From assembly GCA_963816535.1 (NCBI GenBank), contig CAWFKW010000003.1, positions 510,526 through 574,525 on the forward strand: a DNA stretch of 64,000 bases. Direction: 5' to 3'. This stretch comes from an uncultured Ignavibacteria bacterium. Lineage in GTDB: Bacteria; Bacteroidota; Ignavibacteria; Tepidaquicellales; OLB5. The translations under genes and the position numbers were made by a program. A model generated the notes under the pieces. It ran no database searches. It was not told the origin of the DNA and was given only the letters and a program-made list of their open reading frames with translations. Below are positions 5,101 to 30,320 of this stretch, piece by piece; position 1 is the stretch's first letter, and every line of letters starts with the position of its first letter.

Positions 5101-5235
5101 CAAAAAACTTATTAAACTGCATTTTGTTATTTCACTATGTCTATCACCCGGGTTTCACAATTTTCTTCTAAACTATACGTCATAGTGACTTGACTTTTCA
5201 AAACGGATGTCTTATAATGATTAAGGAGCGCTTAC

Positions 5236-5438: not shown

Positions 5439-5818
5439 CTAATTACTATTAATCAATTAACAATTAACAATAAGCAAAGGTCAAAAAAGAACAATGAACT
5501 AATTACTAAGAATTTGACGAACCTGATGAATTTGATAAATTTGATGAATCTGACCGATTTGATAATCTGATAAATTATCATTCGGGATTTGAGAGAAATG
5601 AGAAAGAATTTTCGTTCAAAAATTATGATTACGTTTCAAAAACACGGAAAATATTTTTTTCGCAATGGTTTGCTGAATCCATCGCACGGAAAAGATATTT
5701 TTTTATACAACTGTTTATATTTTGGGGGCTGTAAGTTAATGTATAAAAATAATTTATCCCGTTTTTGGGCGCGGTCAAATCCTGCACAACCCATGACAAA
5801 TCCAAATCAATTACTAAT

Positions 5819-5840
5819 TACTAATGACTAATAATTTGAT
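5819..5840 (+). repeat. Exact 22-mer ATTACTAATTACTAATGACTAA (copy 1 of 3)
   Basis: The identical string occurs at 15731-15752 and 57544-57565. A truncated form overlaps the stop codon at 8438-8458. Confidence 0.9.
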
Positions 5841-12847: not shown

Positions 12848-12876
12848 TTACCGTATTCTAATAGTTAAAGACTACA

Positions 12877-13173
12877 TTACTTCTTTTCTTTCCATTCTTT
12901 AAGCTTGTCATAGGAATATATGCCAGAGTTATGCCCGTCTTTCCAGAAAAGCTGTATGGCGTAGTTCCCAACCGCTTTAATATCAGATAGCGTAAGCTGT
13001 ACTGATGATAAAAGCGGGATATAAGATGCCGGCTTATCCTCTCTTTCTTTGAGGCACGCGGCGCAGGGGCAAAACTTCCTGAGGTTTGAAAGAGCCAGCA
13101 TGTTTTCGGAGCCGTCATCCCAAACTATGTACAGGAACCGTTTATCTTTTATAGAGATCTTTTTAGGAACCAT
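12877..13173 (-). CDS. DUF971-like small protein
   Basis: 98 aa (FLYIVWDDGSE...CPCAAC...IQLFWKDGHNSGIYSY). Preferred over the overlapping 12858..13118 ORF. Confidence 0.55.
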   Translation of the reverse strand: MVPKKISIKDKRFLYIVWDDGSENMLALSNLRKFCPCAACLKEREDKPASYIPLLSSVQLTLSDIKAVGNYAIQLFWKDGHNSGIYSYDKLKEWKEKK

Positions 13174-14317: not shown

Positions 14318-15685
14318 TTAAAGAACTAACCTGACCGCATCCTGAATCGATTCAACCGGAATCAATTCTAAAATCCCGTTTGCTTTCAGGTTCTTCATGT
14401 TCCCTTTCGGAAGAACAATTTTCTTAAAACCAAGCTTAACAGCTTCCTGAATTCTGCGGTCAATAAAGCTTATGGTTCTTATCTCGCCGCTCAGCCCGAC
14501 CTCCCCGAGGACGATCATCTCCGGCTCCATCGATGTATCTTTAAAGCTGGAGCAAATACTCATTGCCGCGGCGAGATCGATAGAGGGCTCATCGATCTTT
14601 ATGCCGCCTGCAATGTTTACAAAGACATCAAACTTTGACAGATGTAAACCAATTTTCTTCTCCAGCACAGCCAGTAAAATAGCAAGCCGCTTATAATCAA
14701 ACCCGGTTGCGGTACGCTGCGGCACCGAGTATCCCGAAGAAGATACGAGCGCCTGGACTTCTATCAAAATGGGCCTTGTCCCTTCAATGCTGGCCGAAAC
14801 CGTGCTGCCCGAAATCCCGGAATTGCGCTGCGACAGAAAAACTTCCGAGGGATTCTTTACCTCAAGCAGGCCCGCGCCTGTCATTTCGAAAATTCCTATT
14901 TCATTTGTAGAGCCGAAACGGTTCTTGATAGCCCTGAGTATCCTGTATGCATGCGTTCTTTCTCCTTCGAACTGCAAGACTGTATCAACCATGTGTTCCA
15001 GAACTTTAGGGCCGGCAATAACGCCTTCCTTAGTTATATGCCCTATAAGGAAGAACGAAATATTTTTAGCTTTAGCAATCTGAATAATGGAGGCAGTTGA
15101 TTCCCTCAACTGCGAAACGCTCCCGGGGCTTGATTCCAGTTCGCCCCGGTAAATAGTCTGTATTGAATCTACAATTACTACATCAGGCTCAAGCTTATCT
15201 ATAACTGCAGCAATTATTTCAAGGCTGGTTTCCGAGAGTATATAGAATTCATCGTGTTCAAATCCAAGCCTTTCACATCTTAGCTTAATCTGTTTTTGAG
15301 ATTCTTCGCCGCTAACATATAGGATTGTATTGTTCTTTATCTTATCAGATAGCTGCATCATCAAAGTTGATTTGCCGATGCCGGGATCGCCGCCCACCAA
15401 AATTACAGAACCTGCGACAATTCCTCCGCCCAGCACTCTATCAAGCTCGCCTATGGATGTAGTAATTCTTTTATCTTCTCTTACATCAATATCTGATACC
15501 TTCGCAAGATTAGAAAGCTGGAGCAAAGCTGCGTCTTTTTTCCCCTTGTTCGTTTTGCGCTTATCCGAAAATACTATTTCTTCAACAAAAGTGTTCCAGT
15601 TGGAACACTCGGGACATTTGCCAAGCCATCTGACGGATGAATAGCCGCAATTCTGGCATATATATTTAGTGACAGTTTTTGACAT
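14318..15685 (-). CDS. radA: DNA repair protein RadA/Sms
   Basis: N-terminal zinc finger CQNCGYSSVRWLGKCPECSNW, Walker A GDPGIGKST, KNRFG motif and a Lon-like C-terminus. Confidence 0.95.
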   Translation of the reverse strand: MSKTVTKYICQNCGYSSVRWLGKCPECSNWNTFVEEIVFSDKRKTNKGKKDAALLQLSNLAKVSDIDVREDKRITTSIGELDRVLGGGIVAGSVILVGGDPGIGKSTLMMQLSDKIKNNTILYVSGEESQKQIKLRCERLGFEHDEFYILSETSLEIIAAVIDKLEPDVVIVDSIQTIYRGELESSPGSVSQLRESTASIIQIAKAKNISFFLIGHITKEGVIAGPKVLEHMVDTVLQFEGERTHAYRILRAIKNRFGSTNEIGIFEMTGAGLLEVKNPSEVFLSQRNSGISGSTVSASIEGTRPILIEVQALVSSSGYSVPQRTATGFDYKRLAILLAVLEKKIGLHLSKFDVFVNIAGGIKIDEPSIDLAAAMSICSSFKDTSMEPEMIVLGEVGLSGEIRTISFIDRRIQEAVKLGFKKIVLPKGNMKNLKANGILELIPVESIQDAVRLVL

Positions 15686-15752: not shown

Positions 15753-15796
15753 TTAGTAGCAACTTATTCTTGTTTTCCACCCTCTCCTGCCTCCCC

Positions 15797-15827
15797 TCTA
15801 CGAGTCTTCGACTCGAAGAGTCGTAGA
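15797..15827. repeat. Near-palindromic hairpin repeat, family E
   Basis: TCTACGAGTCTTCGACTCGAAGAGTCGTAGA. Related copies lie at 45397-45427, 4928-4969 and 5269-5300. Confidence 0.85.
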
Positions 15828-16066
15828 CCTCCCGGGGGAGACAAAATATATTTCATCGCCATGGCAGAAAATAGTGTGATTCTCTACCATTTACCAGCGC
15901 CACTTGCCGCTTTCCCCCGTTAAGAGGTAACAGATTAAATTTCGGAAAACCACATTTCCCCTGACAGAGGAAACACAAAGGGGTGGTAATCCCAACATTT
16001 TGAATTCCACCGCCTCCGGCGCCATTTTACAAAGGGTGCAAAAAATCAGGGTTAAAAATAAATTTC

Positions 16067-16084
16067 TTATAATTGTATATTTAA
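16067..16084 (+). repeat. Left direct repeat (putative att site)
   Basis: TTATAATTGTATATTTAA, identical to 29831-29848. Confidence 0.85.
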
Positions 16085-16127
16085 TATGCAAGTAAGTTAT
16101 TGAGTATTATAGATTAATTTTCTTTTG

Positions 16128-16146
16128 GGTAACATATGAGTAACAA
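16128..16146 (+). promoter_or_regulatory. Putative arm-type integrase binding repeats (left)
   Basis: GGGTAACA-TAT-GAGTAACAA, in the same orientation and word as the three copies at 29684-29718. Confidence 0.4.
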
Positions 16147-17120
16147 AAATACAAAATTGTCATTTCAACCTGTATATTGATCTAAATTATAGTTTCGGGA
16201 TGATCCAATACTGTAGATAGAGCGCACACGCAAAAGAGGGCTTTAGTGTTTTCCTATCATCTTTCTTGTTATCTAACCGCTTGATTTTTGGCTTTTCTCA
16301 TTCCGCAGATTTTTAAGGTCTGCTTCTTTTCGCTTTGCTGTTTGTTTCGCTTGCGGTTGCATACGCCCTTTTATTTTATTCCCGCCCTTGCGAATCCCCA
16401 GCCAAGTAGCATTTAATCGTGTTATCTGCCTCCACAGCGCCTTATTAGGCTCTGTGCCTGCCTTTCTCCCCTGTTTTAGACAGTATTGTCCCATAAAATT
16501 ATGTTTTGCTTCATTTTTTATTTGCTTTTCTTTTTTGGAAACTCATAGCATTCACTTTGTTCAGCACGGGCAAGCCCTATTCGGACAGTCCAAAAAATTC
16601 ATTTGCAAAAAATAAATTCGCCATTAAATCCTCCGCACAGTTTAACTGTGCAAGCTGAAGCCTGCTGAGAGAGTAAGAAAAAAAGTTTTGCCGTTCAAAT
16701 AGCCGATGTTCCTTCGGCGTGGTTGAGCCGCAGCGAAATTATGAGCAAGGCGAAACCTATGCGTTTCGAAACTTTTTTGATACGAACCGAAGCAGGTAAA
16801 GCACAAGCTGTTTATTGTACGTATCTCTTTCAATGGGTGGACGGTGTGCCGTTATAATGCGCTTTGAAAGTACGGCACATGAAAAACTTGATAATGACTG
16901 GTTAGTGGGCGGGTGGAATTCAGAAACAGGGTGAGCCTGTTAGCCTTTGATATGAATTAGTGAAACGAAGCGAAGTTTTATGCGTAGCGAGTTGAACCAA
17001 AAACAAATAAAGGCTAAGTGAAGACTTTAAATGCCGGATAACACGAGCGAACTCTTTATCATGCGCCATTTTTTAAGATATGCAGTTTGTGCTTAATTTT
17101 TATATAAAATCGAATAAGGT

Positions 17121-18212
17121 TTATAATTTATTAGCAATTTCAAGTAATTGTTGTTTTACTTTATCATTGCCATTTTTGAGCTTTCCTGAAAAATCAATAT
17201 TATTCAATATTTCTGATAACTTATTACTTGGGAAATTACCATAAGAACCAAATGTTGTTGATAGATTCTCATGTCCGAAGTTTTGGCTTACTGCATGTAA
17301 TTCTTCTCCATTTTTGCAAGATTTAAAAGCCAATGCTTTCGTTAAATGCCTGTATGCATGTGGTGGAAAATATTTCAATCCTGCCTCTTTTGCTCTTTTC
17401 ATAAATATTGTTCTCATTGACCCTGCGCCTTTCCAAAATATGGGCTCAACTTCAATTGCGGATTCAAAACTAATATTAATCTTATCTTGATTCACCTTTG
17501 ATCTGGGAAATACAGGATCATTTTCCTTGAAATCTTTTGATTTTAATATATCTATCCATTCTGACACATATTTATACAATTTTTCGTCAAATATGAAAAT
17601 AATGCTTTCAATATACTTAGTGAATTTTGTTTTTACACCTTTTAGAGGGTTTTGGTGAATTATTCTATTCTTGATATCAACGCAATTCATTGGCAGTGAA
17701 ACTATTGCAGCATCACGCATCCCAGTTAGTAATGTAAAAGCAATTAATGCCCGGTCTCTCTTATCTATTTCAGTTCGGCAATTAATGGAATCTGTTAATT
17801 TGATAACATAACGTAATTCCGGAAAAGCTCTGGGTACATTTTGGGTAGCCATTCTTTCTTCACTATGATTCATTTTAAGGTAACTTATGACATCTGGCCT
17901 AATGCTATTCCTGAAACCTGGCTGAGTACACAGCCAAGTAAAAAACTTTCTTAAATTTCTAATATATGCATGAAAAGTAACCAAACTTATAACTTTGTCC
18001 CTAAATTTTCTTTTCTTGAGCCATTCCTTAAATTCAATCATCCTATCGGGGTTGAATTTCTTATTAAATTTCTCATACTTGTTAAATTCCTCATAATTCA
18101 GAATGGCTTTATTTATGCAATCAATTGTGGATTCACTAAAGCCCTCTGCTCCTTTTAGATATTTGAAGTATTTTCTTTTTGTTTGTTCGTTTTTAAGATT
18201 CACATTTGACAT
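17121..18212 (-). CDS. Tyrosine recombinase / site-specific integrase (second copy in island)
   Basis: 363 aa. The catalytic C-terminus reads LLTGMRDAAI...PPHAYRHLTKA...GHENLSTTFGSYG (R..HxxR..H..Y pattern). Confidence 0.85.
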   Translation of the reverse strand: MSNVNLKNEQTKRKYFKYLKGAEGFSESTIDCINKAILNYEEFNKYEKFNKKFNPDRMIEFKEWLKKRKFRDKVISLVTFHAYIRNLRKFFTWLCTQPGFRNSIRPDVISYLKMNHSEERMATQNVPRAFPELRYVIKLTDSINCRTEIDKRDRALIAFTLLTGMRDAAIVSLPMNCVDIKNRIIHQNPLKGVKTKFTKYIESIIFIFDEKLYKYVSEWIDILKSKDFKENDPVFPRSKVNQDKINISFESAIEVEPIFWKGAGSMRTIFMKRAKEAGLKYFPPHAYRHLTKALAFKSCKNGEELHAVSQNFGHENLSTTFGSYGNFPSNKLSEILNNIDFSGKLKNGNDKVKQQLLEIANKL

Positions 18213-18717
18213 TTAATTTCTCCTCTTTTATGTCAGTGTTTAAGAAAGGATATCCAGTACCATTTAATACTTTATTATGCTCTTCAAACTTCATTCCATT
18301 TTTTATCATTTCATAAATAATTCTATCTGATGAAAATTTGAATAAAGAATTATTGCACACTGCACAGTTACCTTTAATAATTGCATGTTTGTATCGTTTA
18401 CCTAAATTTTTATCCGATATTATATAGGTGAGTTTATCCAATATGCTCTTTCTGGGAAGATGGCATTTTGTGCAGTAAAATTGATCTGGATTAAGGCAAT
18501 GTTTTTGCTTCTGCTTTCTGTCCTTCAAAAAGAGCCTGACATCTTGACCAAGTATTAAATATGGTGAAAGAGATCCTTCAATGACTTTTAAACCCTGTTT
18601 ACGCCAATCCTGGACGGTCCTAACATGTAAACCATAGACCTGCGCGATTTCTGTGAGGGTATAAGACCTCTTGGCTCTAATCAGATTAGGATTATATTTC
18701 CTTTTTTTCTTTGACAA
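18193..18717 (-). CDS. HTH plus Cys-rich (zinc-ribbon-like) protein, overlaps the integrase start by 20 nt
   Basis: 174 aa. HTH-like YTLTEIAQVYGLHVRTVQDWRKQG. Cysteines at CTKCH...CAVCN. Confidence 0.5.
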   Translation of the reverse strand: MSKKKRKYNPNLIRAKRSYTLTEIAQVYGLHVRTVQDWRKQGLKVIEGSLSPYLILGQDVRLFLKDRKQKQKHCLNPDQFYCTKCHLPRKSILDKLTYIISDKNLGKRYKHAIIKGNCAVCNNSLFKFSSDRIIYEMIKNGMKFEEHNKVLNGTGYPFLNTDIKEEKLNVKCES

Positions 18718-18726
18718 ATTAAACCG

Positions 18727-19002
18727 CTATTTAGCAAGGTATTTTGCAGCTTCTTTATCAATTTCAGCATTACTTTTTATGGGATTTCTGTAAACCCATT
18801 CATCAAGTTTTGCCTTGTCAAAGTATATTTTCTTGCCAAACGGTTTGTAATATGGTATTTTCCCTCCGGAGGTTAATTTATAAAGGTAGGATTTTGATAT
18901 TCCCAGATAATTACTTGCTTCATCAAAAGTGTAAGGTTTAGTTTTTTGAACTGTCAGTAGTTCTTCAATTCTTTCAAGTTTTTTTATTATTTCTTTAGTC
19001 AT
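18727..19002 (-). CDS. Excisionase-family HTH DNA-binding protein
   Basis: 91 aa. YTFDEASNYLGISKSYLYKLTSGGKIPYYKPFGKKIYFDKAKLDEW is typical of AlpA/Xis-type HTH proteins. Confidence 0.7.
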   Translation of the reverse strand: MTKEIIKKLERIEELLTVQKTKPYTFDEASNYLGISKSYLYKLTSGGKIPYYKPFGKKIYFDKAKLDEWVYRNPIKSNAEIDKEAAKYLAK

Positions 19003-19216
19003 ATAGACCTCTGAGGCCGAATGGCAAAAATGGAAAAAAGCAGCAAAGTAAAAGAAAATCTAACAAACGCCATTTGAGAATGAGCGTTATGAAAGAAAAC
19101 CTTGCTGCTAAAATTTTGGATTGTAAGAAGTGGTTAGATTTTCTTTACTACAAAAATATAACATGAAGTGGCTAAAATTCTTAATAGTGTTAATAGCAAA
19201 CTTAATATTAAGTGTA

Positions 19217-20416
19217 TTAACTTTTTATCTTTGAAATTAATCTTGTAAGTTTCTGTGATGTTTTAGGTATGCTTTGAGAAGATACTGCAAGCGATTTAAA
19301 AGGTTTATTCAATTTGTTCCTAAAAATAGAACTGGCTTTTTTCCAAATTTCTGCATCATTCATTAGCTTAATATCATTTTTGCATAATTCTGTCAAACAA
19401 AAAGTAAGCTCATTTTGATAAGCACACCATATGATGGGTTTAGCTTCACAATTTGTAAGGGGATTTTCATTAATATCTTCAAAATTTGCAATATAGTTTT
19501 CTATTGAATCTTGATTGCATTGTATCAGATCATTTCCAATCCATACATTTAACAAATTTTGTAATTGCTCAATAGTGCCAAGCCAAATAAGTCTATATTT
19601 CTTTTGAGTAATGTTTTTTTCAGCATTATCGATTTTATTATTGTTCCCAAATTCGATTACTTTTTCACGATATTTAATCTCTCTTTCTACTTTTTCAATA
19701 AATATCTGATCTGCAATTAAGTGCTGATATTCAATTGGCGTATTAAGGTAATTTTTATTAAAGTTTTCTAAATATAAAAATTGTTCTTTTACACCAGAAA
19801 TTTGATTACAAAACGTCATAAGTTCATCAAAATCACGCTTCAAATAAGAGTAACCTGCGTAAGCAAAATTACCAGTAAATCCTGTAATTATTTTATCCCA
19901 AATAGTATTTGTCTTATTTTCAGATTTTTCACTTTGGGGGGTAACAGATGCTTTTCTATTAATCTGGCTATCCAGTAATTCATAATATTTTTCCAAGCGC
20001 TCATTGATATAATCAATAAAGGTGTTATCTCCAGTGGGATAAGCCTTATCAAACTCATATTTTGCTTTTACTTTATTCATATATTCAATTTTCTTTTCAA
20101 ACGTATCCAATTGTTGTAAATCATTCGTTATTCCTTTCATCAATTCACCATATGACACAATACTTACATATTTTCGGTAATTTTTAAATTCACTCTCTGT
20201 TAATGCCACTATCTGCCCACAAAAATGTTTATCACTGCCAATAATCCACCCACCTATTTCGTTTACAACGTACTGAAATTTGAAAGTCAATTCAATATTC
20301 CCAGCAAGTCTCATCTTTTCCGGAAATGAATTTGTTTCATCATGTGCCGAATGAGTTACGGATTCATTTGCGGAATCGCTCTTATAATTCGATCCATTCG
20401 ATTTGTTTTCTTCCAA
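19217..20416 (-). CDS. Hypothetical protein (399 aa), last gene of the four-gene module
   Basis: Long ORF with no overlap. N-terminal S/N-rich tail and a central K/E-rich helical region. The C-terminal segment RLIWLGTIEQLQNLLNVWIGNDLIQ faintly resembles RteC-type winged helices (weak). Confidence 0.6.
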   Translation of the reverse strand: MEENKSNGSNYKSDSANESVTHSAHDETNSFPEKMRLAGNIELTFKFQYVVNEIGGWIIGSDKHFCGQIVALTESEFKNYRKYVSIVSYGELMKGITNDLQQLDTFEKKIEYMNKVKAKYEFDKAYPTGDNTFIDYINERLEKYYELLDSQINRKASVTPQSEKSENKTNTIWDKIITGFTGNFAYAGYSYLKRDFDELMTFCNQISGVKEQFLYLENFNKNYLNTPIEYQHLIADQIFIEKVEREIKYREKVIEFGNNNKIDNAEKNITQKKYRLIWLGTIEQLQNLLNVWIGNDLIQCNQDSIENYIANFEDINENPLTNCEAKPIIWCAYQNELTFCLTELCKNDIKLMNDAEIWKKASSIFRNKLNKPFKSLAVSSQSIPKTSQKLTRLISKIKS

Positions 20417-20436
20417 TCGCAGTTTTCCCTTGATTG

Positions 20437-20970
20437 TTATAGAGATTGCAAAAATGTTGTTATCGTTGCTGAAAATCTACATTCTACATAACCATCCTCT
20501 TTAAGCAAAAGAGCCGCATCTTTTAATTTTTCCTTGAAATTTTTTAGCTCTTCAGAATTTAGTATCTTATCAAAACCAATTCCTGAAGCATAAGGTTCTT
20601 TTTCGTGTAAGTTACTTAATACCTCTAAAAGTCGTATTGATATTTCTCTTAAATCTAAGGGTGATATATTTATATCTGTTACTTTAATTTCATTTTCAGT
20701 GATGTTAACTTTATCCCAGCCTTTCTCTTCACAATACAAAATTCCTTTTGATGTTAAACTAACATAATAAAAAATTCCATCTTCAGCACGCTCACCGGTA
20801 ATATATCCGCTATCCTCTAAATAATCCATAGCTCTATGCACTTTATTACCAGAATCAGAATATCTTTCCTGCTTATAAATTTTGTCCATTGACAGATAAT
20901 CGTTATCGCCTAAGATTATATAAATATCTCTCAGGATGATATCAGCCATTTCTCTCAATCCTAATGTCAT
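20437..20970 (-). CDS. Hypothetical protein with two winged-helix-like halves (YjcQ/DUF2513-like, weak)
   Basis: 177 aa. VHRAMDYLEDSGYITGE...YVSLTSKGILYCEEKG, and a second half with AALLLKEDGYVECR. Confidence 0.5.
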   Translation of the reverse strand: MTLGLREMADIILRDIYIILGDNDYLSMDKIYKQERYSDSGNKVHRAMDYLEDSGYITGERAEDGIFYYVSLTSKGILYCEEKGWDKVNITENEIKVTDINISPLDLREISIRLLEVLSNLHEKEPYASGIGFDKILNSEELKNFKEKLKDAALLLKEDGYVECRFSATITTFLQSL

Positions 20971-21027
20971 TTTTTAATCCTTATAAAAAGTAGGATATGA
21001 TTTTCTTTTTGCCATTTACAATACATT

Positions 21028-21942
21028 TTATATTTGACTTTTAGCCATATTTAAAACCCTTCTCAATTCAAATACAAAATTCTTCATTGTTTCAGGATCA
21101 TGAAGGATTTTCTCAGGTATAGATCTAAACCGGTCCCCCAGAATAGGCATCATATCCCTTTTTTCTTTCCCATCGTTTATTCGTTCAATATATGGGTTAC
21201 TAATAATCGTCTCCGAATGAGCAATTTTATTTCTAACATCTAAGAGCTTGTCAATGAATTTTTCACGTTCTTTTTTTGATTCAAAAGTGAATATATCAGC
21301 GTCTTTTAGCAGCTTAAATTTGTCCCGCATGTTTAAATGATATAGCAAATCTCTATATTTTGCAAATGTGTCTCCAGCTCTAAATACTTGTACTTTTTCA
21401 ATTCTTTCCTTTGATAATACCTTGCTAATCGAAATGTTATTATTTCTTATTAATTCGTTTAATGCATTATCAAGTTCTAATATTAATGAAAATATGACCA
21501 ATTTTACTTCATTACAATCAAGGTCATAAAAACTAATTGTGCCTATTATTGCATTTTTGTCTAACACCAAAAAAAAATCATCTTTAATATTGAACATTGC
21601 AATTACATCCAACAGTGGAGTTTCTGAACTTAAAAATAAGTTTGCTGGAATAGGTTCAACAAGCTCTCCCCAAACATTTAAGATTGAATCATCTTCTTCA
21701 TTGACAAATCTTACTTTATCGTAATTCGATTTAGAAGTAAAGTACCCTGATATCTTATTGTTATCCTTAATTATAACCACCCAACAACCTAATGAAATAT
21801 CATCATGATAAAATGAAGGTTCCGGGAAATCTCCTACCACATCAATAGAATCATAAAAATAAAGATTATCACTCCGTGCTATATCTTTAGCAGTAAATGT
21901 AGTTGCGATTTTTTCAAAATTTGAAAATTGAATCAGTTCCAT
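21028..21942 (-). CDS. CBS-pair (Bateman) domain fused to a HEPN-like domain with an Rx4H motif
   Basis: 304 aa. CBS-like PANLFLSSETPLLDVIAMFNIKDDFFLVLDKNAIIGTISFYDLD, plus an earlier weaker CBS. The C-terminal helical region carries LLDVRNKIAHSE (R-N-K-I-A-H), as in Abi/HEPN RNases. Confidence 0.6.
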   Translation of the reverse strand: MELIQFSNFEKIATTFTAKDIARSDNLYFYDSIDVVGDFPEPSFYHDDISLGCWVVIIKDNNKISGYFTSKSNYDKVRFVNEEDDSILNVWGELVEPIPANLFLSSETPLLDVIAMFNIKDDFFLVLDKNAIIGTISFYDLDCNEVKLVIFSLILELDNALNELIRNNNISISKVLSKERIEKVQVFRAGDTFAKYRDLLYHLNMRDKFKLLKDADIFTFESKKEREKFIDKLLDVRNKIAHSETIISNPYIERINDGKEKRDMMPILGDRFRSIPEKILHDPETMKNFVFELRRVLNMAKSQI

Positions 21943-21960
21943 TTAGGATGTATAATACTG

Positions 21961-22170
21961 TTAAAGTTTAATTATAATTTCTTTAGGCAAACTTTTTAAT
22001 AAGTTGTCAAATTCTTGTACTTCTTTTGAAACATTATCTCCCTTTAATCTTATACTTGCCCTGCAATGTGGGCATTTAATTAAACCGGGCTTTATATCGC
22101 CCAATGAAAGGCCTAAGTTACGTTTACATTTTGGACAGCTCATTTCTGATTTTTGTGTTGATAAGCTCAT
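21961..22170 (-). CDS. Small zinc-ribbon protein
   Basis: 69 aa. CPKC...(17 aa)...CPHC, MJ0042-like CxxC pairs. It ends 18 nt upstream of the CBS-HEPN gene. Confidence 0.6.
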   Translation of the reverse strand: MSLSTQKSEMSCPKCKRNLGLSLGDIKPGLIKCPHCRASIRLKGDNVSKEVQEFDNLLKSLPKEIIIKL

Positions 22171-22247
22171 TTTATTTTAAGTTTTGATTAATGAAAAAAT
22201 TTTTCGAAAGACCAGTCAGTTTTGAATACTGTTTTCTACAATAACAT

Positions 22248-22516
22248 TCATTTTTTTAGAAATATATCTCCTAAAAAGTCATCGATATTATTAAAATATT
22301 TATCCGTAATACCAATTAAGTTTAAATTCAACTTTTTATAAATGCTTTCTTTTTCTTGTTTCCGCTTCATATATCTTTGATTATCATCTGGTGGTTTAAG
22401 TCAAAGTGAGTAACAAATTGTCTTCTTTTCTGATGTAATGGCTCAAATTTCTTGAGTAAACTATCCTTTTGTTTTTCAAAAGTAGCCTCTAATTCTCTTA
22501 AATCTGTAATATCCAT
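22248..22516 (-). pseudogene. Degraded or frameshifted small gene remnant in the mid-island gap
   Basis: ATG at 22516 gives MDITDLRELEATFEKQKDSLLKKFEPLHQKRRQFVTHFDLNHQMIIKDI*. Another frame continues KRKQEKESIYKKLNLNLIGITDKYFNNIDDFLGDIFLKK*. Confidence 0.3.
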
Positions 22517-22575
22517 GTGATAGTTAAATAAATCTATAATGCTAAATCCTGCATGGTGTTAATTAGTTTGTCACT

Positions 22576-24516
22576 TTACTCGCCGTTATCAAACACAATT
22601 ATACTTTCATCACCTGCAATATTTCTAATCTTCATTCTTAATGGTTTTTTAACACAGGTTATCTTCGCATCCCAAAATGTTTTTGTTTTTTTGCCATCCT
22701 CAATTGCATAACCGAGTTTATCAATTTTAATTTCTTTGTCGCTATGCCAAATACTATCTTTATTTTCACAGTCCAAACTTATCAATTCAATGAGTTCTAA
22801 TCCGTCTTTACTGATTTCTATTGTTGAAAATTTCTTTTTCTTTTTGCCATTTCCATTTTCTTTTTCACCCCCATTGTCGTTACCGTTTTCACCATTTCCA
22901 TTTTCTATCTCGGTTAATGGCTGCAACATTCCCTTCTGATTATGTTCATCAATCTTTTTTCGCAATCTATCGCTTATAAACTTTGTGATTTCAATTTCAT
23001 AAGCATCGTTTTCTTCTTTAATTTTATATTCAACAACATCATCCGAAATGATATTATCTAATATTTGTTTCAAATCACGGAGTTCAATTTCTTTATCTGT
23101 TGTTGTTTGTTCTTTGATAAACTTTCTGATCTCTTTTTCATTATCAATGTCTATGTAATACACTATTACTTTTTTTACACTGTCTGATAACTCAGGAATA
23201 GCTTCGTTGATTACTCGATTCATTAAATACTTATCCAAAACTTTTGTAGTATGGTCAAGTAAATTTGGGATATATACAGGTATAAATCCCAGTTTACTGT
23301 CGTTTATTGACCCTTCCCAAAACTTATCCAACTTATCTTCATTTTTCAAACCCAAAATCATTGTTTTGAGTTTCTCCATTGTTTGAACTGGATTGCGAAA
23401 TAGATTTACTCCGTCTTTTATTTCAAGAATATCAAATTCCGTTTTACTTGCTATCAATCTATCTCGTGTAGTTTGGATGCTATTTATACCAACATCACAA
23501 TGAATAAAATTTCTATCTAAATCATTAGCAACCTTAGCCATTACTCCTCCCCCACCAAAGAAATCGGCTACCAACATCCCTTTATAGCTACTTGCTTTGA
23601 TAATTCGTTCTAATAATTTTTGAGGTTTTCCTGTAGAATAACCAATTTCTCTTATTTCAGTTGCATTAATGCCTATGTTCCAAACATCATACTCTCCAAT
23701 GCCAGCTTTCTTATAAGTTTTGACTTTTTCACCTCTCGGATTTTTATTCCAATAATACCAATTCTTCTTTTCCTCATCCCATTCTTTGAATCTTTCTTCT
23801 TGTTCTTTTGTGTATGGAATTGCTACATCATTAAAATTAAATACCCATTCTTCACTTTTTGAATACCAAAAAATTGTGTCATGTTTTCTATTGAATTGAG
23901 TGGAGGGGTCACTGCCACTTGGATACCACCAGATTATTTCATTCCTAAAATAATCTTCGCCGAATATCTCATCCATTAATATCTTCATGTAAGCACCAAT
24001 GTGCCAATCAGCGTGGACATATATGCTTGCGTTTTCACTCATCACATTATTAATTGCCATTAAATTTTCATACATCCAGTTTAGGTATGATTCTTTGTTC
24101 CAAATATCGCCATACATCTTTTCCTCAAATGATTTCAAATCATCTATTTCAATTTCTTCCTCGGCTTTTTTAATTGCTGTGGCAATTTTAGGGTTTCTGC
24201 GTATGTAAACCTGTTTTGCATAATCTGCACCACTTGCAAAAGGCGGGTCAATGTAAACAAGGTCAAGTTTAATTCCTTTATCTTTAAGATAAGCACAGGC
24301 AGACACACAATCACCACGAATGACCATGTTTTTTGAGTTATTGCCTACGCTTTCTTTTTTCTCTACTTCATAGTAAGGCATACCACGAATAATTTTCTCT
24401 TTCAACTCTTTGTCGTTTCCACGATATTTGAGGGCCCTGCGAGACCGAACGAAATTGTTTAGAATAGCTTGCCCTTCAACTGTATCAGGCAAAAAAGGAA
24501 CATATTTTAATGGCAT
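22576..24516 (-). CDS. N6-adenine/N4-cytosine DNA methyltransferase, beta-class (Type III Mod-like) with a long C-terminal extension
   Basis: 646 aa. Motif IV is DLVYIDPPF and motif I is VADFFGGGGV, in beta-class order. A low-complexity linker ENGNGENGNDNGGEKENGNGKKKKK precedes a ~90-aa C-terminal domain. Confidence 0.85.
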   Translation of the reverse strand: MPLKYVPFLPDTVEGQAILNNFVRSRRALKYRGNDKELKEKIIRGMPYYEVEKKESVGNNSKNMVIRGDCVSACAYLKDKGIKLDLVYIDPPFASGADYAKQVYIRRNPKIATAIKKAEEEIEIDDLKSFEEKMYGDIWNKESYLNWMYENLMAINNVMSENASIYVHADWHIGAYMKILMDEIFGEDYFRNEIIWWYPSGSDPSTQFNRKHDTIFWYSKSEEWVFNFNDVAIPYTKEQEERFKEWDEEKKNWYYWNKNPRGEKVKTYKKAGIGEYDVWNIGINATEIREIGYSTGKPQKLLERIIKASSYKGMLVADFFGGGGVMAKVANDLDRNFIHCDVGINSIQTTRDRLIASKTEFDILEIKDGVNLFRNPVQTMEKLKTMILGLKNEDKLDKFWEGSINDSKLGFIPVYIPNLLDHTTKVLDKYLMNRVINEAIPELSDSVKKVIVYYIDIDNEKEIRKFIKEQTTTDKEIELRDLKQILDNIISDDVVEYKIKEENDAYEIEITKFISDRLRKKIDEHNQKGMLQPLTEIENGNGENGNDNGGEKENGNGKKKKKFSTIEISKDGLELIELISLDCENKDSIWHSDKEIKIDKLGYAIEDGKKTKTFWDAKITCVKKPLRMKIRNIAGDESIIVFDNGE

Positions 24517-24519
24517 ATT

Positions 24520-27366
24520 TTAATCGTTAAAAAAATTTGTGATTTTGTTAGTCATGTATGTTCGGTTGCTATCCCAAGTAACATCATCGCTTATATACGC
24601 AAAATCAAATTTACTGTATTTAAATTTTTCATTGTTCAGTCGTAGAAATTCCGTCTCCATAAATGTTTTTCTTAATAAAAATTCTTTTTGTTCGGCGAAG
24701 CCTTTTCCTTTTGTTTCTACAATTAGAGCTTTGTAAATGGAATTTCCCTTTCGTTGAATGATTAGAAAATCGGGTGTATAAATTCCTACAGGTTTCCAGC
24801 CTGTTGAATGCTCTGAATAGCAAAGAATTTTAAACGAAGTTAAATCCCGTTCACCATTGTAATAAATTTCAAGGTCGCCCTTTTGAAATACGCCAAGTTG
24901 TAAACAATCTTTCAAAAAATTCATTTCAAACCTGCTTTGAGAAAAAAAATACGGCATATAATGTAACGTTTTGTCTTTGGAATACACTGCTTCAGAGAAA
25001 TTTATAGAATCGGCTATTCCAGAGAGTCCTTGACTGCGAAGTGTCTCACGTATTTCATTCAATGCAGTTTGTTGATTTTTTCCCGAATTATCTAAATCAA
25101 TAATTTGTGTAAGGCTGTCTTTGTCGGGATAAAGATTAGGATGTTCGGGAACAGAATCGAGTTTAGAAACAAGAAGCAATGAAGCTGTATATTCAAAAAT
25201 TTCTTCTTCCGTTTTAATATCTCTTTTACAATGGAATGCTTTTCTAATCAGTGATTTTACTTCTCCCTGGTCATAGAGTTCATTGAAAAAACATTTTCCA
25301 TTTGAAGTATAAGTAATGATTGAATAGATATCACTTAAAACTTTTTCGTATGGTGCAAGTTGTTCTAATGAACATGAACCAAAACTTTCTTTGCAGATGT
25401 CATACAACCAATAGTCATAAATTGCTTCTGCCTCCCCTTGCTTTTGCAAAACAGTTCTGGTAACCGGGTCATTAGGATTCAATCCTCTTTCAGTAATAAC
25501 CAAAGTATTTAATAATGAATTGTCAGAAGAAATATTTTCTAATTTTTCTTTTGTGTGAGGAGTATCTTCAATAATCAATTCGCTGTATTTTACGCTGAGT
25601 TGATAAAAACTTATGTCAGGCAGTTTAAGATATTCCATTCGGGAATATCTCGGCACCTCTGTAGTTCCTATTCCCTTGCCAGCTTTATTGATTTCTTCAA
25701 TACTTGTTCGCTGTTCGTTCTTTAATTGTTTGTCTAATTTTTCTTCATTGAAAGCATTCAGAAAAATTATTGCGGTTTCATCTTTTGCAATATCCACTTC
25801 ACGAAGGCAACGACAAGAAGTTTGCAAAACCATATTCGTAGGGCAATCTCCTTGCTGTGCAAGAATAACTCCAGTCAAACTTCTGCAATCCCAACCTTCT
25901 TTTCCAATTTGTGCAAGTAAAATAATTCTTTTTTTAGAAATGTCTTTGTCAAGTGAGAGATATTCCAGTTCTGCTTCCTTAGAGACTTTGTGTTGTTTGT
26001 TTCCTTTGTGATAGCGCAAAATTTCTTCTGGATTTATTTTCAGTTCTCCAGTAAGGAACGGAAAAACTTCTTCTTCCAAGCGGTTTATCAGTCCGCAATA
26101 GATTGCAAGTTTTGCAACCGTTCCGTTTGTATAAATCTTCTCGCCATACTGCCTGTAAAATTCGATTACTCCTTCTTTGATAATATTAAGAGGTCTGTTA
26201 TCAGTTGATGCCTTGATATATGGTTTCTTCAAAAAATTTCCTATTCCCTGAATGAGAGGATAATAATAAATTGTGTTTGTTATCTGGTTAAACTTCAAAA
26301 ATACATCATCATCCACTGTAATTTTTTCAGCTCTTTCAAGATAAGGCGTTCCTGAAAAACCAAGTGTTGTTGTAACATTTCCTGAATTGTTCCAGCGATT
26401 TACAACTTGTCTCAATTCAATATCGCTGTCAGTAGCGTGATGAACTTCATCTATAAGAATTTGAAGATTAGGAATTTTCCCGATTAAGTTTCGGAGTTCG
26501 TTTGCATACTTGTCTTTCTCATCTTCGGTTTTTTCTATTAATTCATTTTGTGCTGAAAGTTCAAGCCGTTCAAGGATAACTTTCTCTGCATTTACAACAA
26601 ACACTTGCCCGAATGGGTCAGGCAAACATTTATTTACTTTTTCAGCATTGGGGTTTCTTGCTTTATTGCTTTTCTTTCCTGTCTTTTGTTGGTCAAGCAC
26701 TTCAAATTTTAAAATCTTCTTCAGCTCACTTGCAGCAGGGTCAGGTAATATCCACTTAGGATTGAAGTTCTCAATCGTCTTTAAACTTGGTACGATAGAA
26801 GATTTTAAACCAGAGGGTACTAATACCAAAAAGTTGTGAGCAAAATTTTTATTTTCGGGTTCAAGTTGTGCAAAATACAGGTCAAGATAAATAAATGCTG
26901 CCATCAGATATGTTTTACCTGCTCCCATCGGCAAACTGAAAAGATAATCAGTATAATTTACATTGTAGAAAATTGATTTGATGATTTTATCGTAGTCTAA
27001 TTTGTCGGCTTTATCTTTTATGAGTCTTTCCAATTCGGGTAAAAGAGTGTTGCTATTTGTTTTTATTCTTGAAAACTCAAATAATGCACGTGCTGAAATA
27101 TTATTTTCCAAATGCTTTCTTGCTGCCTGACTTAGGAGTTCTACTGATAAATTCACTGAATCTTTGATAAAAAAACCTTCTGTGAAAAGTTTCCAAAGTG
27201 GCTTGTTTTCACATTGAATTTTTAAGAAAAGATATTGTTCAATAGCATCTATCTGGGTGTCGCGCAAAGCACCCGTAATTCGGATGTAGTCAATGAGAAA
27301 CTTAACGCTACAATCGGGTGAATTAAGCCACTCTTTTCTCTTATCTGAAATTATATTCTGAAGCAA
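24520..27366 (-). CDS. Type III Res-like helicase-nuclease
   Basis: 948 aa. Walker A PMGAGKT and DEAH-type box LIDEVHH. The C-terminal PD-(D/E)xK motif is YTPDFLII...LIVETKGKG. Its stop is 3 nt from the Mod start. Confidence 0.85.
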   Translation of the reverse strand: MLQNIISDKRKEWLNSPDCSVKFLIDYIRITGALRDTQIDAIEQYLFLKIQCENKPLWKLFTEGFFIKDSVNLSVELLSQAARKHLENNISARALFEFSRIKTNSNTLLPELERLIKDKADKLDYDKIIKSIFYNVNYTDYLFSLPMGAGKTYLMAAFIYLDLYFAQLEPENKNFAHNFLVLVPSGLKSSIVPSLKTIENFNPKWILPDPAASELKKILKFEVLDQQKTGKKSNKARNPNAEKVNKCLPDPFGQVFVVNAEKVILERLELSAQNELIEKTEDEKDKYANELRNLIGKIPNLQILIDEVHHATDSDIELRQVVNRWNNSGNVTTTLGFSGTPYLERAEKITVDDDVFLKFNQITNTIYYYPLIQGIGNFLKKPYIKASTDNRPLNIIKEGVIEFYRQYGEKIYTNGTVAKLAIYCGLINRLEEEVFPFLTGELKINPEEILRYHKGNKQHKVSKEAELEYLSLDKDISKKRIILLAQIGKEGWDCRSLTGVILAQQGDCPTNMVLQTSCRCLREVDIAKDETAIIFLNAFNEEKLDKQLKNEQRTSIEEINKAGKGIGTTEVPRYSRMEYLKLPDISFYQLSVKYSELIIEDTPHTKEKLENISSDNSLLNTLVITERGLNPNDPVTRTVLQKQGEAEAIYDYWLYDICKESFGSCSLEQLAPYEKVLSDIYSIITYTSNGKCFFNELYDQGEVKSLIRKAFHCKRDIKTEEEIFEYTASLLLVSKLDSVPEHPNLYPDKDSLTQIIDLDNSGKNQQTALNEIRETLRSQGLSGIADSINFSEAVYSKDKTLHYMPYFFSQSRFEMNFLKDCLQLGVFQKGDLEIYYNGERDLTSFKILCYSEHSTGWKPVGIYTPDFLIIQRKGNSIYKALIVETKGKGFAEQKEFLLRKTFMETEFLRLNNEKFKYSKFDFAYISDDVTWDSNRTYMTNKITNFFND

Positions 27367-27423
27367 TTTCTATTTGTCTCGGTTTTTGAAATCATTGTTT
27401 TAAAACCTTTAGTCAAATTTTGT

Positions 27424-28002
27424 TTATAAAAATGAAATTAATTGAGCAATTGTTTGTGCGTTATTATCATCAAATCTCATCATATAGAATGGTATTTTTC
27501 TATTGCCTTGATATCTTACTGTAAAATTTCTCTGATGATTCATATCTATCCCTAAAGCCCATCCAAAAAACCATAATTCAGTTAGTCGGGCATTAGTGAA
27601 AAAAACCTGTATGTTAATTTCCTTGAAATTTACTCTTGGCGGATGAATTATATGTTCATTCAATAATACATCTGCAATGTTATCATATTGAGAAATGGAA
27701 GATCGAACCTCAATGTTATGGTTATTCACTTGTAAATCAAAACGTTTGCGTTGTGTTTGCCAATTTGGTCTTACTCCCGGATCATCCCAGTCAATGACTG
27801 GTAATCCTTTTGTTAGCAAATACTGTTTGAAAGATATTTTAGCAATATCTCCCATTCTCGAAGCCTCGTACTTTTCCCTTAAACCTCTACCTCTAATAAA
27901 GGTATCATTGATTGGATGTTTTAGGGCTGATACTCTTTCCGCCTCTCTTACATCTGCTCGTTTGACACTCCATTGAATTACATTTCTCACATTTACTGGC
28001 AT
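27424..28002 (-). CDS. Hypothetical protein, possible PD-(D/E)xK-fold variant
   Basis: 192 aa, ending 57 nt upstream of res. RFDLQVNNHNIEVRSS resembles a D...ExK core with K replaced by R (weak). Confidence 0.4.
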   Translation of the reverse strand: MPVNVRNVIQWSVKRADVREAERVSALKHPINDTFIRGRGLREKYEASRMGDIAKISFKQYLLTKGLPVIDWDDPGVRPNWQTQRKRFDLQVNNHNIEVRSSISQYDNIADVLLNEHIIHPPRVNFKEINIQVFFTNARLTELWFFGWALGIDMNHQRNFTVRYQGNRKIPFYMMRFDDNNAQTIAQLISFL

Positions 28003-28593
28003 TTCGATTTAACTCCCTTTCAATTCAGGGCATAATGAATTAAACCCTATAAATTTATTGAATTAAAGCCTAATTTAGCTTGTTTATTTGGTACATTCAA
28101 TTTAAAATAGAGGGCATTAATTAGTTAAACAGATAAGAAAATTTTATCTTTCAAACTAATTATTCGATTAAAAACTTAAATGTAACTGAAAGTAAATATA
28201 TGGACTTGTTAAATTGATCGTGATTTATTAGTTTTAATCATTCAAATTTTAAGGGGATACAAATTTAATAGGTAGTGGGAGTCGGCTTTGTAAGGGTGGC
28301 TGACGTTTTTGGATGATAGCTCCCAGCTTTCTGAAGAAACTCACTACCTAATTTATTTTTAAATAAAAAAATATGGCAAAACACGAAGAAGATACACTTG
28401 TACCTTGTCCAAAATGTAATTATTTTTAATTTTGATAGTAATAAGGATTGCTAAAATTAACGATGTCAAGGAACCTCATATTTACGGCCAAAAGTATTGT
28501 ATAAAAAACAAAATTTTTGTTTTTATGAGTAACGCTTGTGGAGGTTTTTTCCCAAGATAAATTTAAAAAGTTCTACTTTATGCAGTAAATGTT

Positions 28594-29646
28594 TTAAGCC
28601 AGCTTCATATTAGGCAACTTATTAACCGCTTCAATTTTCTTTTGATCAACTATTTTAGCATACACTTGAGTTACGCTTACGCTGCTATGTCCAAGCAATT
28701 TTGATACTGTATATAAATCCACCCCTTGTGTTAGTGAAAGGGTAGCAAAAGTATGCCTACCGCAATGAGTTGTAATATGTTTTTTTATACCAGCTGACTG
28801 GACCCACTTATCGAGGTATTTTAAAACGGTTGCTAAGCAAGGCAGCTCAAATATAGGTTTATTTTCTAATTCATATATATTCCCCCTAAGATGCAATAAA
28901 ATATTTTTTGCTGTTTCAGATAACGGTAAATAGAGTAATTGCTTTGTCTTTTGTTGTTTCAATTCTAAGTGATCATCTTTTACGTTATCCCATTTCAAAT
29001 TCCTAACATCTGAAATTCTTAGACCTGTATAACAGGCGAATAAGAAAGCATGTTTGATTTGTTCTTTATTACATTTGGTATTATTTAGCATTAATATTTC
29101 ATCGAATGTTAAAAATTCCTTTTTTGCTTGGTCAACTTTGGTTTTTTGTTTGTAATAAATAAATGGACTGACAAGTATAATTCTTTCTCTTATTGCGGTA
29201 TTTAGTGCAACTCTTAAAGTAAGCATATAATCAACTACAGAAGTATTTGAAAGATTCTCTTTTAAATAATCTTCAAAATCACCCAGCCAAATTTCATTAA
29301 TTGCTGAAACCCTGATTCCGCCTTTTGCAAATTTTCTGACATAATTTAAGCAACTTTCAAAACGTTTTCTATTAGAAGTATTTTTTGTGTTCCCAACCTT
29401 TGTCATATAGTCTATAAAATCTATTTTGCTGTTATGCTCGGGAGTAAAACCATAATGAGCATTCCTTAATTCAATTTCTCTTTTAGCCCTTATGCTTTCA
29501 GCTAACCTTAATATCTCTTTATTCTGAATTTTATCATTTTTTAAATGAAGCTGTAAAAATTCATATTTTCTTTGTCCATTGTTATAGATATCCAGGTACA
29601 GGCTAAAGCTATTATCATTTAATTTTTTCTTTCTTAGTTTTACCAT
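28594..29646 (-). CDS. Tyrosine integrase with N-terminal arm-binding-type domain (Bacteroidota-style)
   Basis: 350 aa. ACYTGLRISD...HCGRHTFATL...LLGHSSVSVTQVYAKI (R, HxxR, H, Y). It is adjacent to the right direct repeat. Confidence 0.9.
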   Translation of the reverse strand: MVKLRKKKLNDNSFSLYLDIYNNGQRKYEFLQLHLKNDKIQNKEILRLAESIRAKREIELRNAHYGFTPEHNSKIDFIDYMTKVGNTKNTSNRKRFESCLNYVRKFAKGGIRVSAINEIWLGDFEDYLKENLSNTSVVDYMLTLRVALNTAIRERIILVSPFIYYKQKTKVDQAKKEFLTFDEILMLNNTKCNKEQIKHAFLFACYTGLRISDVRNLKWDNVKDDHLELKQQKTKQLLYLPLSETAKNILLHLRGNIYELENKPIFELPCLATVLKYLDKWVQSAGIKKHITTHCGRHTFATLSLTQGVDLYTVSKLLGHSSVSVTQVYAKIVDQKKIEAVNKLPNMKLA

Positions 29647-29683
29647 TTTATTTATTCCTTTATTAAATTATTTTTGAATATTA

Positions 29684-29718
29684 ATGAGTAACAAGTGAGT
29701 AACAAATAGGTAACAAAT
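29684..29718 (+). promoter_or_regulatory. Putative arm-type integrase binding repeats (right), three tandem copies
   Basis: atGAGTAACAA-gtGAGTAACAA-atagGTAACAA at an 11-12 bp period, between the integrase start (29646) and the right direct repeat. Confidence 0.45.
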
Positions 29719-29830
29719 CGTGTGAAACAATATGAAAATATCGGTTCACATGTATACTAAAAAGTTCAATTTTCATCATAAATTTGTATTTCTGCTATCT
29801 TTTGTTTTCTTTTGTTTCTCTATTCAAATA

Positions 29831-29848
29831 TTATAATTGTATATTTAA
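29831..29848 (+). repeat. Right direct repeat (putative att site)
   Basis: TTATAATTGTATATTTAA, followed by AATT and the ispF ATG at 29853. Confidence 0.85.
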
Positions 29849-29852
29849 AATT

Positions 29853-30320
29853 ATGAGAGTCGGGTTAGGATACGACATACACAAGTTTGTAAAAGGACGG
29901 AAGTTAATACTCGGCGGAGTTGAAATAAAACACAGCCGTGGATTGCTCGGTCATTCTGATGCCGATGTACTTTTGCATTCAATTTGCGATGCGCTGCTGG
30001 GCGCGGCTGGTCTGAACGATATCGGACATTACTTTCCTAATACGGATAAAAAGTGGAAAAACATCTCAAGCTTGATTCTGCTTAAAGAATGCGCCAGACT
30101 GGTTCTTCATGAAAAGCTTGAGATAGGCAATATCGACAGCACAATAATACTGGAAGAGCCCAGGATAAGTCCGCATATCGACAAAATGAGAATAAACATA
30201 GCCAGGGCCCTTAAGATCAGGCGAAACCAGATATCAATTAAATCGACTACCTCAGAAGGGCTGGGATTCATAGGGACCAAAAAGGGGTGCTCTTCATATA
30301 CAATTTGCCTTCTTAAATAA
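29853..30320 (+). CDS. ispF: 2-C-methyl-D-erythritol 2,4-cyclodiphosphate synthase
   Basis: MRVGLGYDIHKF...GHSDADVLLHSICDALLGA. I use the ATG at 29853 rather than the track's upstream TTG at 29784. Confidence 0.9.
   Translation: MRVGLGYDIHKFVKGRKLILGGVEIKHSRGLLGHSDADVLLHSICDALLGAAGLNDIGHYFPNTDKKWKNISSLILLKECARLVLHEKLEIGNIDSTIILEEPRISPHIDKMRINIARALKIRRNQISIKSTTSEGLGFIGTKKGCSSYTICLLK

Follow-up and report, generated by a model that had tools for sequence, protein, structure and literature searches.

The described systems that lie closest to the locus reported here are the NBU elements, CTnDOT, phage lambda and defence islands on integrative elements. NBU elements insert at tRNA-gene 3' ends and possess a relaxase gene as well as an origin of transfer (oriT), and CTnDOT is a 65-kb conjugative element. 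For the CTnDOT integrase IntDOT, 2 bp of homology suffices and 5 bp of heterology in the overlap is tolerated (PMC2034462); because just 2 bp of homology is needed, CTnDOT ends lack long perfect repeats. That homology lies beside a conserved TTTGC, and short non-identical coupling sequences flank the ends. We analysed a 64,000-nucleotide stretch (the window) of contig CAWFKW010000003.1 from an uncultured Ignavibacteria bacterium, in which an AT-rich block separates radA from ispF. The block is very likely a site-specific integrative genomic island that is flanked by left and right attachment sites (attL and attR), carries defence cargo and represents a family new here, in Ignavibacteria-type bacteria. 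The locus combines the features of a tyrosine-integrase island: a full catalytic set in its integrase, core repeats, an empty site in related species, and an arm-binding domain matched by arm-type sites at both ends.

The boundaries are defined by an 18-bp direct repeat, TTATAATTGTATATTTAA, found at 16067-16084 and again at 29831-29848. The original prediction had proposed this repeat, and an exact string search confirmed it: the two copies are the sole matches in the window with two mismatches allowed, leaving no third core copy such as a tandem array would have. That the 18-mer might be a frequent motif is not supported, as it occurs twice in the window and in none of the 182 loci fetched, and 100 dinucleotide-preserving shuffles gave an expectation of 0.04 matches with no shuffle yielding two or more. 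The island is 13,764 bp long, with 13.7 kb between the repeat copies. The right copy is followed by AATT and then by the ispF ATG at 29853, as predicted, a start supported by the YgbB match and by orthologues in three relatives (L001-L003, below) that align with the window product from residue 1. Pfam confirmed the flanking genes as radA, ispF and lnt, and the claim that all genes between the repeats lie on the minus strand holds for every open reading frame (ORF) with a family match. The claim that the island is more AT-rich than its flanks is correct overall (GC 0.320 for 16085-29830 versus 0.423 in the left flank and 0.417 in the right) but fails for ~1 kb at the left end, where GC is 0.42 (16200-17070). 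A tRNA, tmRNA or small-RNA gene as the insertion target is ruled out by ARAGORN, which found no tRNA or tmRNA gene in the whole window, and by Rfam, which returned no match in the window at gathering thresholds and just chance-level matches around attL at E up to 10.

A scan with radA, taking one genome per species, recovered the locus in three Ignavibacteria metagenome-assembled genomes (MAGs; L001-L003). In all three the order is FBPase-radA, a 172-bp spacer, ispF-lnt and a gene for a 618-amino-acid (aa) protein (o618), and no island genes are present at the radA/ispF locus. Directly upstream of the ispF ATG each carries a version of the 18-mer that matches at 13-14 of 18 positions (L002, TTATAATAATATATTTGCAGAAT-ATG; L001, TAATAATGATATATTTGCTGAT-ATG; L003, TATAATTTATATATTTACATTAT-ATG). 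Because this match falls at the same position, the right repeat is the native ispF-proximal sequence, which bears out the original prediction that it recreates the DNA upstream of ispF. The search for an empty site that had been suggested as a check thus succeeded, in related species, and the converse pattern that would have spoken against an island, relatives carrying the same genes without the repeats, was not seen in L001-L003, which lack the island genes.

Relatives of the integrase gene, int, extend the comparison to other sites. Closer relatives share 51-71% identity and derive from assemblies of metagenomes or MAGs; the sole one with a named source is labelled Ignavibacteria. Genomic contexts were fetched for five of them, and all five share 170-250 bp upstream of int that contain three GTTAC(T/C)CA repeats at 11-bp spacing, a TTTTCACATTGTTTCA box and a block whose last bases are AATATTTG; window 29647-29830 is 75% identical over 154 nt to the corresponding DNA of L081-L084. 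Two of these integrases share contigs with homologues (66-68% identical) of a second tyrosine recombinase of the island, rec2, placed after homologues of its two small helix-turn-helix (HTH) proteins, HTH_17 and HTH/Zn. The backbone order of these sister elements is conserved: int occupies one end, and the opposite end holds HTH_17, HTH/Zn, rec2 and non-coding DNA. Across 63-66 nt, the terminus on the rec2 side is 78-80% identical in sister elements (window, ...TTTGTTACTCATATGTTACCC...TACTCAATAACTTACTTGCATA and then the repeat; L174, ...TTTGTTACTCCAATGTTACTT...TACTCAATTATTTACTTGCATA and then the repeat), and in both the window and L174 the homology stops exactly at the element's own direct repeat. 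In L176 it (window 16082-16147) reaches a repeat remnant interrupted by IS1595.

Two sister elements are bounded at both ends. The L083+L174 element is 24.7 kb long, has a 20-bp repeat, TTCAAGCTAAATTGTTAATA, and lies between divergent genes for a secreted protein (SBBP) and an aromatic lyase. The L082+L176 element, of 16.9 kb, occupies the same chromosomal attachment site (attB) with repeats of 14(+6) bp; its left attachment site holds an IS1595-family insertion sequence (L176 11705-14715; terminal inverted repeats TAGGTAACTATATACC / GGTATATAGTTACCTA; DDE_Tnp_IS1595 transposase) that splits the 20-bp core. The cargo of the sister elements is wholly different, consisting of a Type I restriction-modification (R-M) system and other genes, or of metal efflux genes. 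Two integrases were each found next to different chromosomal genes: P0008 is an identical protein in L085 and L086 with an exact 168-nt shared end, beside a class-V aminotransferase gene in one case and TatD in the other, and P0018 is identical in L168 and L172 with a 173-nt shared end, the neighbour being PPDK_N in L168-L171 and a 478-aa gene in L172-L173. Because identical integrases and ends adjoin different genes, and because sister elements share ends and backbone and differ in cargo, these alignments establish a mobile, site-specific family whose members occupy more than one site.

The machinery expected of such an element is present. Int (Phage_integrase, 2e-25; Arm-DNA-bind_5, 2e-11) has R210, K233, H294, R297, H320 and Y329 invariant in a 16-sequence alignment, which is the full R-K-H-R-H/W-Y set. 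Its family numbers >6000 matches, the named ones including Ignavibacteria, Bacteroidota and candidate division KSB1; in a metagenome scan with the integrase alignment, the relatives among the matches listed were at most 45% identical and mostly from gut Bacteroidota. Five of the seven matches to the motif TNRGTAACA in the window lie <150 bp from the two repeats, in a single orientation and 11 bp apart (Table 1). A further exact copy of TGAGTAACA, in the orientation of the terminal sites, was noted at 22407-22415, within the 405 bp that separate the zinc-ribbon gene from mod. The 91-aa HTH_17 protein scores 57.5 bits against TIGR01764 'excise' (cut-off 28.8); homologues in sister elements are 76-77% identical, and in many loci of Bacteroidota a homologue is found 1-2 kb away from a distant Int relative.

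Table 1. Features of the island and its chromosomal flanks (window coordinates).
Feature	Coordinates	Strand	Basis or remarks
radA, left chromosomal flank	14318-15685	-	Pfam Zn ribbon, AAA_25/KaiC ATPase, ChlI/Lon_C; orthologues 83-84% identical in L001-L003
attL, left copy of the 18-bp core TTATAATTGTATATTTAA	16067-16084	.	exact repeat
Left terminus, P' arm	16085-16148	-	two arm-type sites, TGGGTAACA 16126-34 and TGAGTAACA 16137-45, 11 bp apart; repeat family D1
Non-coding region	16149-17120	.	GC 0.42 for 16200-17070; no credible ORF, family or Rfam match
rec2, second tyrosine recombinase, Xer/Cre-like	17121-18212	-	Pfam Phage_integrase 1e-14; two domains, no arm-binding domain
HTH/Zn protein, 174 aa, HTH_17-like N-terminus and Cys-rich C-terminus	18193-18717	-	Pfam HTH_17 25.7 bits
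Excisionase-family HTH_17 protein, 91 aa, candidate recombination directionality factor	18727-19002	-	Pfam HTH_17 3e-14
Orphan 399-aa protein, semi-conserved, adjoins backbone	19217-20416	-	2 non-self homologues in 5.8 billion proteins
Orphan 177-aa protein	20437-20970	-	no significant family match; residues 105-164 match N-terminus of a 440-aa protein in L176
304-aa cargo protein, weak HEPN-like C-terminal region	21028-21942	-	Pfam HEPN_RiboL-PSP, HEPN_Swt1, E ~1e-3, below cut-offs
69-aa zinc-ribbon protein, cargo	21961-22170	-	weak zinc-ribbon and PHROG matches
mod, Type III-like DNA methyltransferase, 646 aa	22576-24516	-	Pfam N6_N4_Mtase (PF01555) 2e-36
res, Res-like helicase-nuclease subunit	24520-27366	-	Pfam ResIII 3e-9 at N-terminus
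Orphan 192-aa protein	27424-28002	-	no match in Pfam, PADLOC, NCBIfam, PHROGs
int, integrase with arm-binding N-terminal domain	28594-29646	-	Pfam Arm-DNA-bind_5, Phage_int_SAM_5, Phage_integrase
P arm, int-proximal end	29647-29830	-	three arm-type sites, 29685-93, 29696-704, 29707-15, 11 bp apart
attR, right copy of the 18-bp core	29831-29848	.	exact repeat; contains -7-like box TATATTTA at 29840-29847
ispF, right flank	29853-30320	+	Pfam YgbB 3e-66, residues 1-154 of 155-aa product
lnt, right flank	30328-32010	+	LNT_N and CN_hydrolase

From the two junctions, and written in the orientation of int, we deduced the attachment site of the element (attP) as ACTTGCATA-TTAAATATACAATTATAA-TATTTGAAT and attB as CATAATT-TTAAATATACAATTATAA-GAAATTT; the repaired attB would read GGTTAAAAATAAATTTC-TTATAATTGTATATTTAA-AATTATGAGAG on the plus strand. 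The sister attP, TTGCATA-TTAAATCTAAATTGTTAATA-TTTGTTT, is visibly homologous to that of the window, so core specificity has drifted together with the target. In L082/L176 the initial seven bases are not the same in the two repeat copies, reading TTCAAGC in the chromosome-side copy and TTAAATC in the element-side copy, and the exchange must therefore have taken place within the remaining 14 bp, a segment equivalent to positions 7-18 of the window core in int orientation. This alignment leads us to infer a crossover confined to the initial 12 bp of the window repeat (plus-strand TTATAATTGTAT, 16067-78 / 29831-42). Imperfect inverted repeats (AAATAT/ATATTT or ATATTAA/TTAATAT) surround a 7-8 bp spacer in both attPs, an arrangement that fits one integrase species binding both half-sites.

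In the proposed pathway, Int would have recombined the attP core with an identical attB core that overlaps the predicted core promoter of an ispF-lnt operon, its N-terminal domain binding the GTAAC arm-type sites, which are spaced 11 bp apart (three beside int, two at the opposite end). Excision probably depends on the 91-aa excisionase-family protein as directionality factor. Circularisation would bring the Xis-like gene, HTH/Zn, rec2, the non-coding region, attP and int together as a single uninterrupted, co-oriented recombination module, and the Type III-like R-M pair, the HEPN-like protein and the orphans would lie as cargo between int and that module.

In its mode of integration the island resembles lambda- and NBU-type integrative elements, and it differs from each described system in some respects. 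As in NBU1, NBU2 and the Bacteroidota islands that pair an integrase with an HTH_17 protein, which span 10-25 kb, a tyrosine integrase sits at the end beside attP; identity between attP and attB cores of 14-20 bp and an HTH_17 excisionase-type gene are shared with NBU1/NBU2-type islands. Unlike NBU elements, the island targets a promoter region, with no tRNA gene and no relaxase found, and has a second recombinase in its backbone. The Arm-DNA-bind_5-type N-terminus, the arm sites on both arms, the AT-rich core with TTTG and the non-tRNA targets are all reminiscent of CTnDOT and IntDOT, but core identity is perfect over 18 bp in the window and extends over 14-20 bp in the sisters, which sets the integrase apart from the IntDOT type, and no transfer genes of the kind carried by CTnDOT were found. 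The lambda-like features are a heterobivalent integrase, iterated arm sites on both the P and the P' arm, a small excisionase and a crossover that falls in a short common core; the island differs in not being a phage and in having, inside the P' side of its module, an additional Xer/Cre-like recombinase and a non-coding stretch of ~1 kb. Finally, it resembles defence islands on integrative elements in that R-M and candidate defence cargo are swapped between homologous backbones; its backbone family and insertion sites (divergent promoter regions in Ignavibacteria) were not encountered in our literature search. That search, over full texts with four terms required together, returned no papers on ispF as an integration site or on Ignavibacteria mobile elements. 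The island family is previously undescribed and mechanistically ordinary.

The cargo agrees with the predicted content of two tyrosine recombinases, an Xis-like HTH protein, an R-M pair and orphan genes, to which we add the Type III-like nature of the R-M pair and the second HTH protein at 18193-18717. Mod fits the description of an EcoP15I Mod-related methyltransferase of the beta N6/N4 class, ~640 aa in length: its best PADLOC match is MTase_III (2e-48), and it matches EcoP15I Mod (4zcf_A) at 3e-13 with similar length. The gene order is res then mod. Weak endonuclease-domain matches in the Res-like protein (residues 858-916) are below cut-offs, and the protein has no match to REase_III in PADLOC or to PDB sequences. 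The two homologues of the orphan 399-aa protein are P0244 and P0243, of which P0244 shares a contig (L178) with the rec2 homologue P0129 and lies directly upstream of its HTH_17 gene. The longest contig of P0243 matches in length that of the rec2 homologue P0130. Downstream of int is an AT-rich gap without ORFs (28003-28593; 591 bp, GC 0.28); L081/L082 and L168-L172 have a gene for a 126-aa PEGA-domain protein at this position, and neither blastn nor tblastx detected similarity between the two.

Searches of the island proteins against Pfam, NCBIfam, PHROGs and PADLOC returned no relaxase of the kind that marks integrative and conjugative or mobilizable elements, and no coupling protein, secretion or type IV secretion system (T4SS), replication or virion genes, four orphan proteins being uncharacterised. 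Relaxase-less islands that carry just an oriT have been reported to be common (bioRxiv 10.64898/2026.01.13.699239), and the island could be a hitcher of this 'iOriT' type, its non-coding region serving as oriT for the relaxase of a conjugative element. Such a role would be compatible with Int-driven integration, and we regard it as rather unlikely. In its favour, relaxase, T4SS and phage genes are missing from every library match, and the ~1 kb of non-coding DNA contains three short blocks in common with sister elements, at 16369-16414, within ~16220-16260 and as a unit at 16505-16615. In L176 and L174 this unit is ~206 nt long with a predicted multi-branch fold (z = -2.8 on one strand, -3.45 on the other). 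The window unit retains the closing helices and has three compensatory pairs in two inner helices relative to L176/L174, with no broken pairs in those helices; in the outermost helix, one more pair is altered on both sides and two are broken. This pattern of substitutions suggests that stem pairing has been conserved in two independent lineages. Against an oriT, the interior of the unit is shortened in the window from 150 nt to 65 nt, its fold is no better than that of shuffles, and no helper element is known.

Folding of 16200-17110 revealed no significant structured RNA (z -0.8 and -0.65), tblastx found no decayed coding similarity, Rfam had no match to the sister region, and a conserved-motif search of IMG/VR had none either. 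Terminator-like hairpins are present on the plus strand at the left end of the island (16305-23 and 16751-68). Possible roles for the unit are those of an oriT, a rec2 site and an RNA.

The second recombinase raises another alternative, namely that the locus is a composite of two mobile units in which a captured or nested rec2 module with recombination of its own has joined an Int-driven element and Int alone defines the outer repeats. The catalytic motifs of rec2 (R166/H285/R288/H314/Y324) are present and invariant in its family, and its AF2 model (pLDDT 76.6) is best matched by XerA, Cre, IntI and Tn1549 Int, the first three about equally; it scores 63 bits against the NCBIfam XerA/integron model (cut-off 220). 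In favour of a composite, rec2 belongs to the simple Xer/Cre/IntI-like recombinases and has nothing but the fold in common with int. An origin as a duplicate of int was discarded, since no pairwise similarity between the two was found. HTH/Zn homologues 45-47% identical lie directly upstream of the rec2 homologues in L174 and L176, and similar-sized proteins occupy this position in L178-L182. Distant rec2 homologues, 55-57% identical, keep a 168-176-aa upstream partner in islands that end in a large serine recombinase and have no Int relative at the end; in L179-L182 they adjoin MmeI/Eco57I-type (Type IIG-like) methyltransferase fusions, with or without Fic, as well as the large serine recombinase. 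Because these homologues and their partner sit in serine-recombinase islands, the rec2 module is portable. The islands of L181 and L182 border directly on a tRNA-synthetase gene.

The composite is also suggested by L174, in which the 206-nt unit beside rec2 is present twice (11419-11649 and 12620-13018, 96% identical) around an insert of ~970 nt that holds two small minus-strand ORFs of 63 and 71 aa, the boundaries of the duplication coinciding with the base of the predicted structure. We nevertheless consider a composite unlikely. There is no third core copy in the window, three independent elements contain both Int and rec2 together with conserved termini outside rec2, and arm sites of the Int type are placed beyond rec2, at the island's extreme end. 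Another proposal is that rec2 works with its HTH/Zn partner and the ~200-nt stem-closed unit as an independent site-specific recombination system that acquires or exchanges cargo in the manner of integrons or cassettes. It would fit the sharing of both ends but no cargo by sister elements, the two unit copies around a small gene insert in L174 and the presence of the rec2 module in islands that integrate via a serine recombinase; we nonetheless hold it to be improbable.

Several points weigh against the reading of the block as an integrated, Int-driven island. The relatives with an empty site are different species whose intergenic DNA is alignable just in part, and no empty site was found within the species: an exact radA look-up returned no record, and the sole other contig with an identical ispF is also occupied by the island. 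A 27-mer spanning the core and the ispF start had no match among JGI metagenome contigs, and a search of IMG/VR for the attP junction string expected of a circular form was likewise negative. We infer excision, the interaction of Int with the arm sites and the role of Xis from homology and anatomy. The reconstructed empty spacer is ~400 bp rather than 172 bp, owing to ~270 bp of extra DNA left of attL. This DNA (window 15760-16040) is missing from L001-L003 and holds a near-perfect 29-38-nt palindrome, CTACGAGTCTTCGACTCGAAGAGTCGTAG, and a 24-mer; the palindromic repeats recur at 4930-5303 and 45395-45429 and the 24-mer at 5809-5832 and 57543-57565, in other intergenic regions. These repeats look like host repeats of the repetitive extragenic palindromic (REP) or miniature inverted-repeat (MITE) kind, and an RNA gene or an older element was rejected as the source of the extra DNA in favour of REP-like repeats.

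A separate observation concerns the neighbourhood of the locus in L002, where a gene at 13378-14073, ~700 bp downstream of FBPase, encodes an unrelated integrase-like protein 24% identical to Int, which suggests a different insertion in the same neighbourhood.

With no same-species empty site, and with an 18-mer that is AT-rich and contains a promoter-like box, one might suppose that the block is not mobile at all, the 18-mer being a promoter-type motif that occurs twice by chance and the AT-rich block an ancestral segment lost in three relatives. This is very improbable: two exact copies are far beyond chance, both abut homologues of element termini found at unrelated loci, two intact recombinases and an excisionase accompany a strong compositional break, and identical sister elements are found in differing contexts. 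That the block is a decayed prophage or a phage satellite is just as hard to credit, for although the integrase, excisionase and HTH genes match PHROG integration and excision families, Pfam and PHROGs revealed no genes for capsid, terminase, tail, replication or lysis functions, and IMG/VR contains neither the attP junction nor relatives of either recombinase.

An integrative island therefore remains the preferred reading, and its position may bear on the expression of ispF. The sequence TATATTT(G/A) lies 5-6 nt before the ispF ATG in the window and in L001-L003 (four species). The flavobacterial sigma-A -7 box, TAnnTTTG, sits at -12 to -5 (PMC9723704), and with this spacing ispF transcription would start 0-2 nt before the ATG. 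The original prediction allowed that the insertion might drive or silence ispF. Because the -7-like box (29840-47) is inside the duplicated 18-mer, ispF probably keeps a working, near-leaderless core promoter at attR. Island DNA replaces everything upstream of about -21, and the box copy at attL (16076-83) keeps the native upstream DNA and faces the left end of the island. Two observations temper this assignment: it is based on Bacteroidetes promoters and the box may not be that of Ignavibacteria, and 'TAnnTTTG + 3-8 nt + ATG' was rejected as a general gene-start pattern, with just 4 genes in the window conforming to it.

Our analysis describes, for the little-studied Ignavibacteria, a family of integrative islands whose two ends, core, arm sites and backbone are defined. 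Its members shuttle R-M, defence and metal-resistance cargo and insert in promoter regions, not in tRNA genes. The general understanding of how such islands work is unchanged. The insertion into the putative core promoter of an essential operon and the conserved two-recombinase backbone are noteworthy. In the window the insertion lies 4 bp from the start codon of an essential gene of the methylerythritol phosphate (MEP) pathway and duplicates a putative -7 box, providing a natural case of an essential promoter that tolerates replacement of its upstream DNA, with an orphaned promoter copy at attL that possibly regulates the island.

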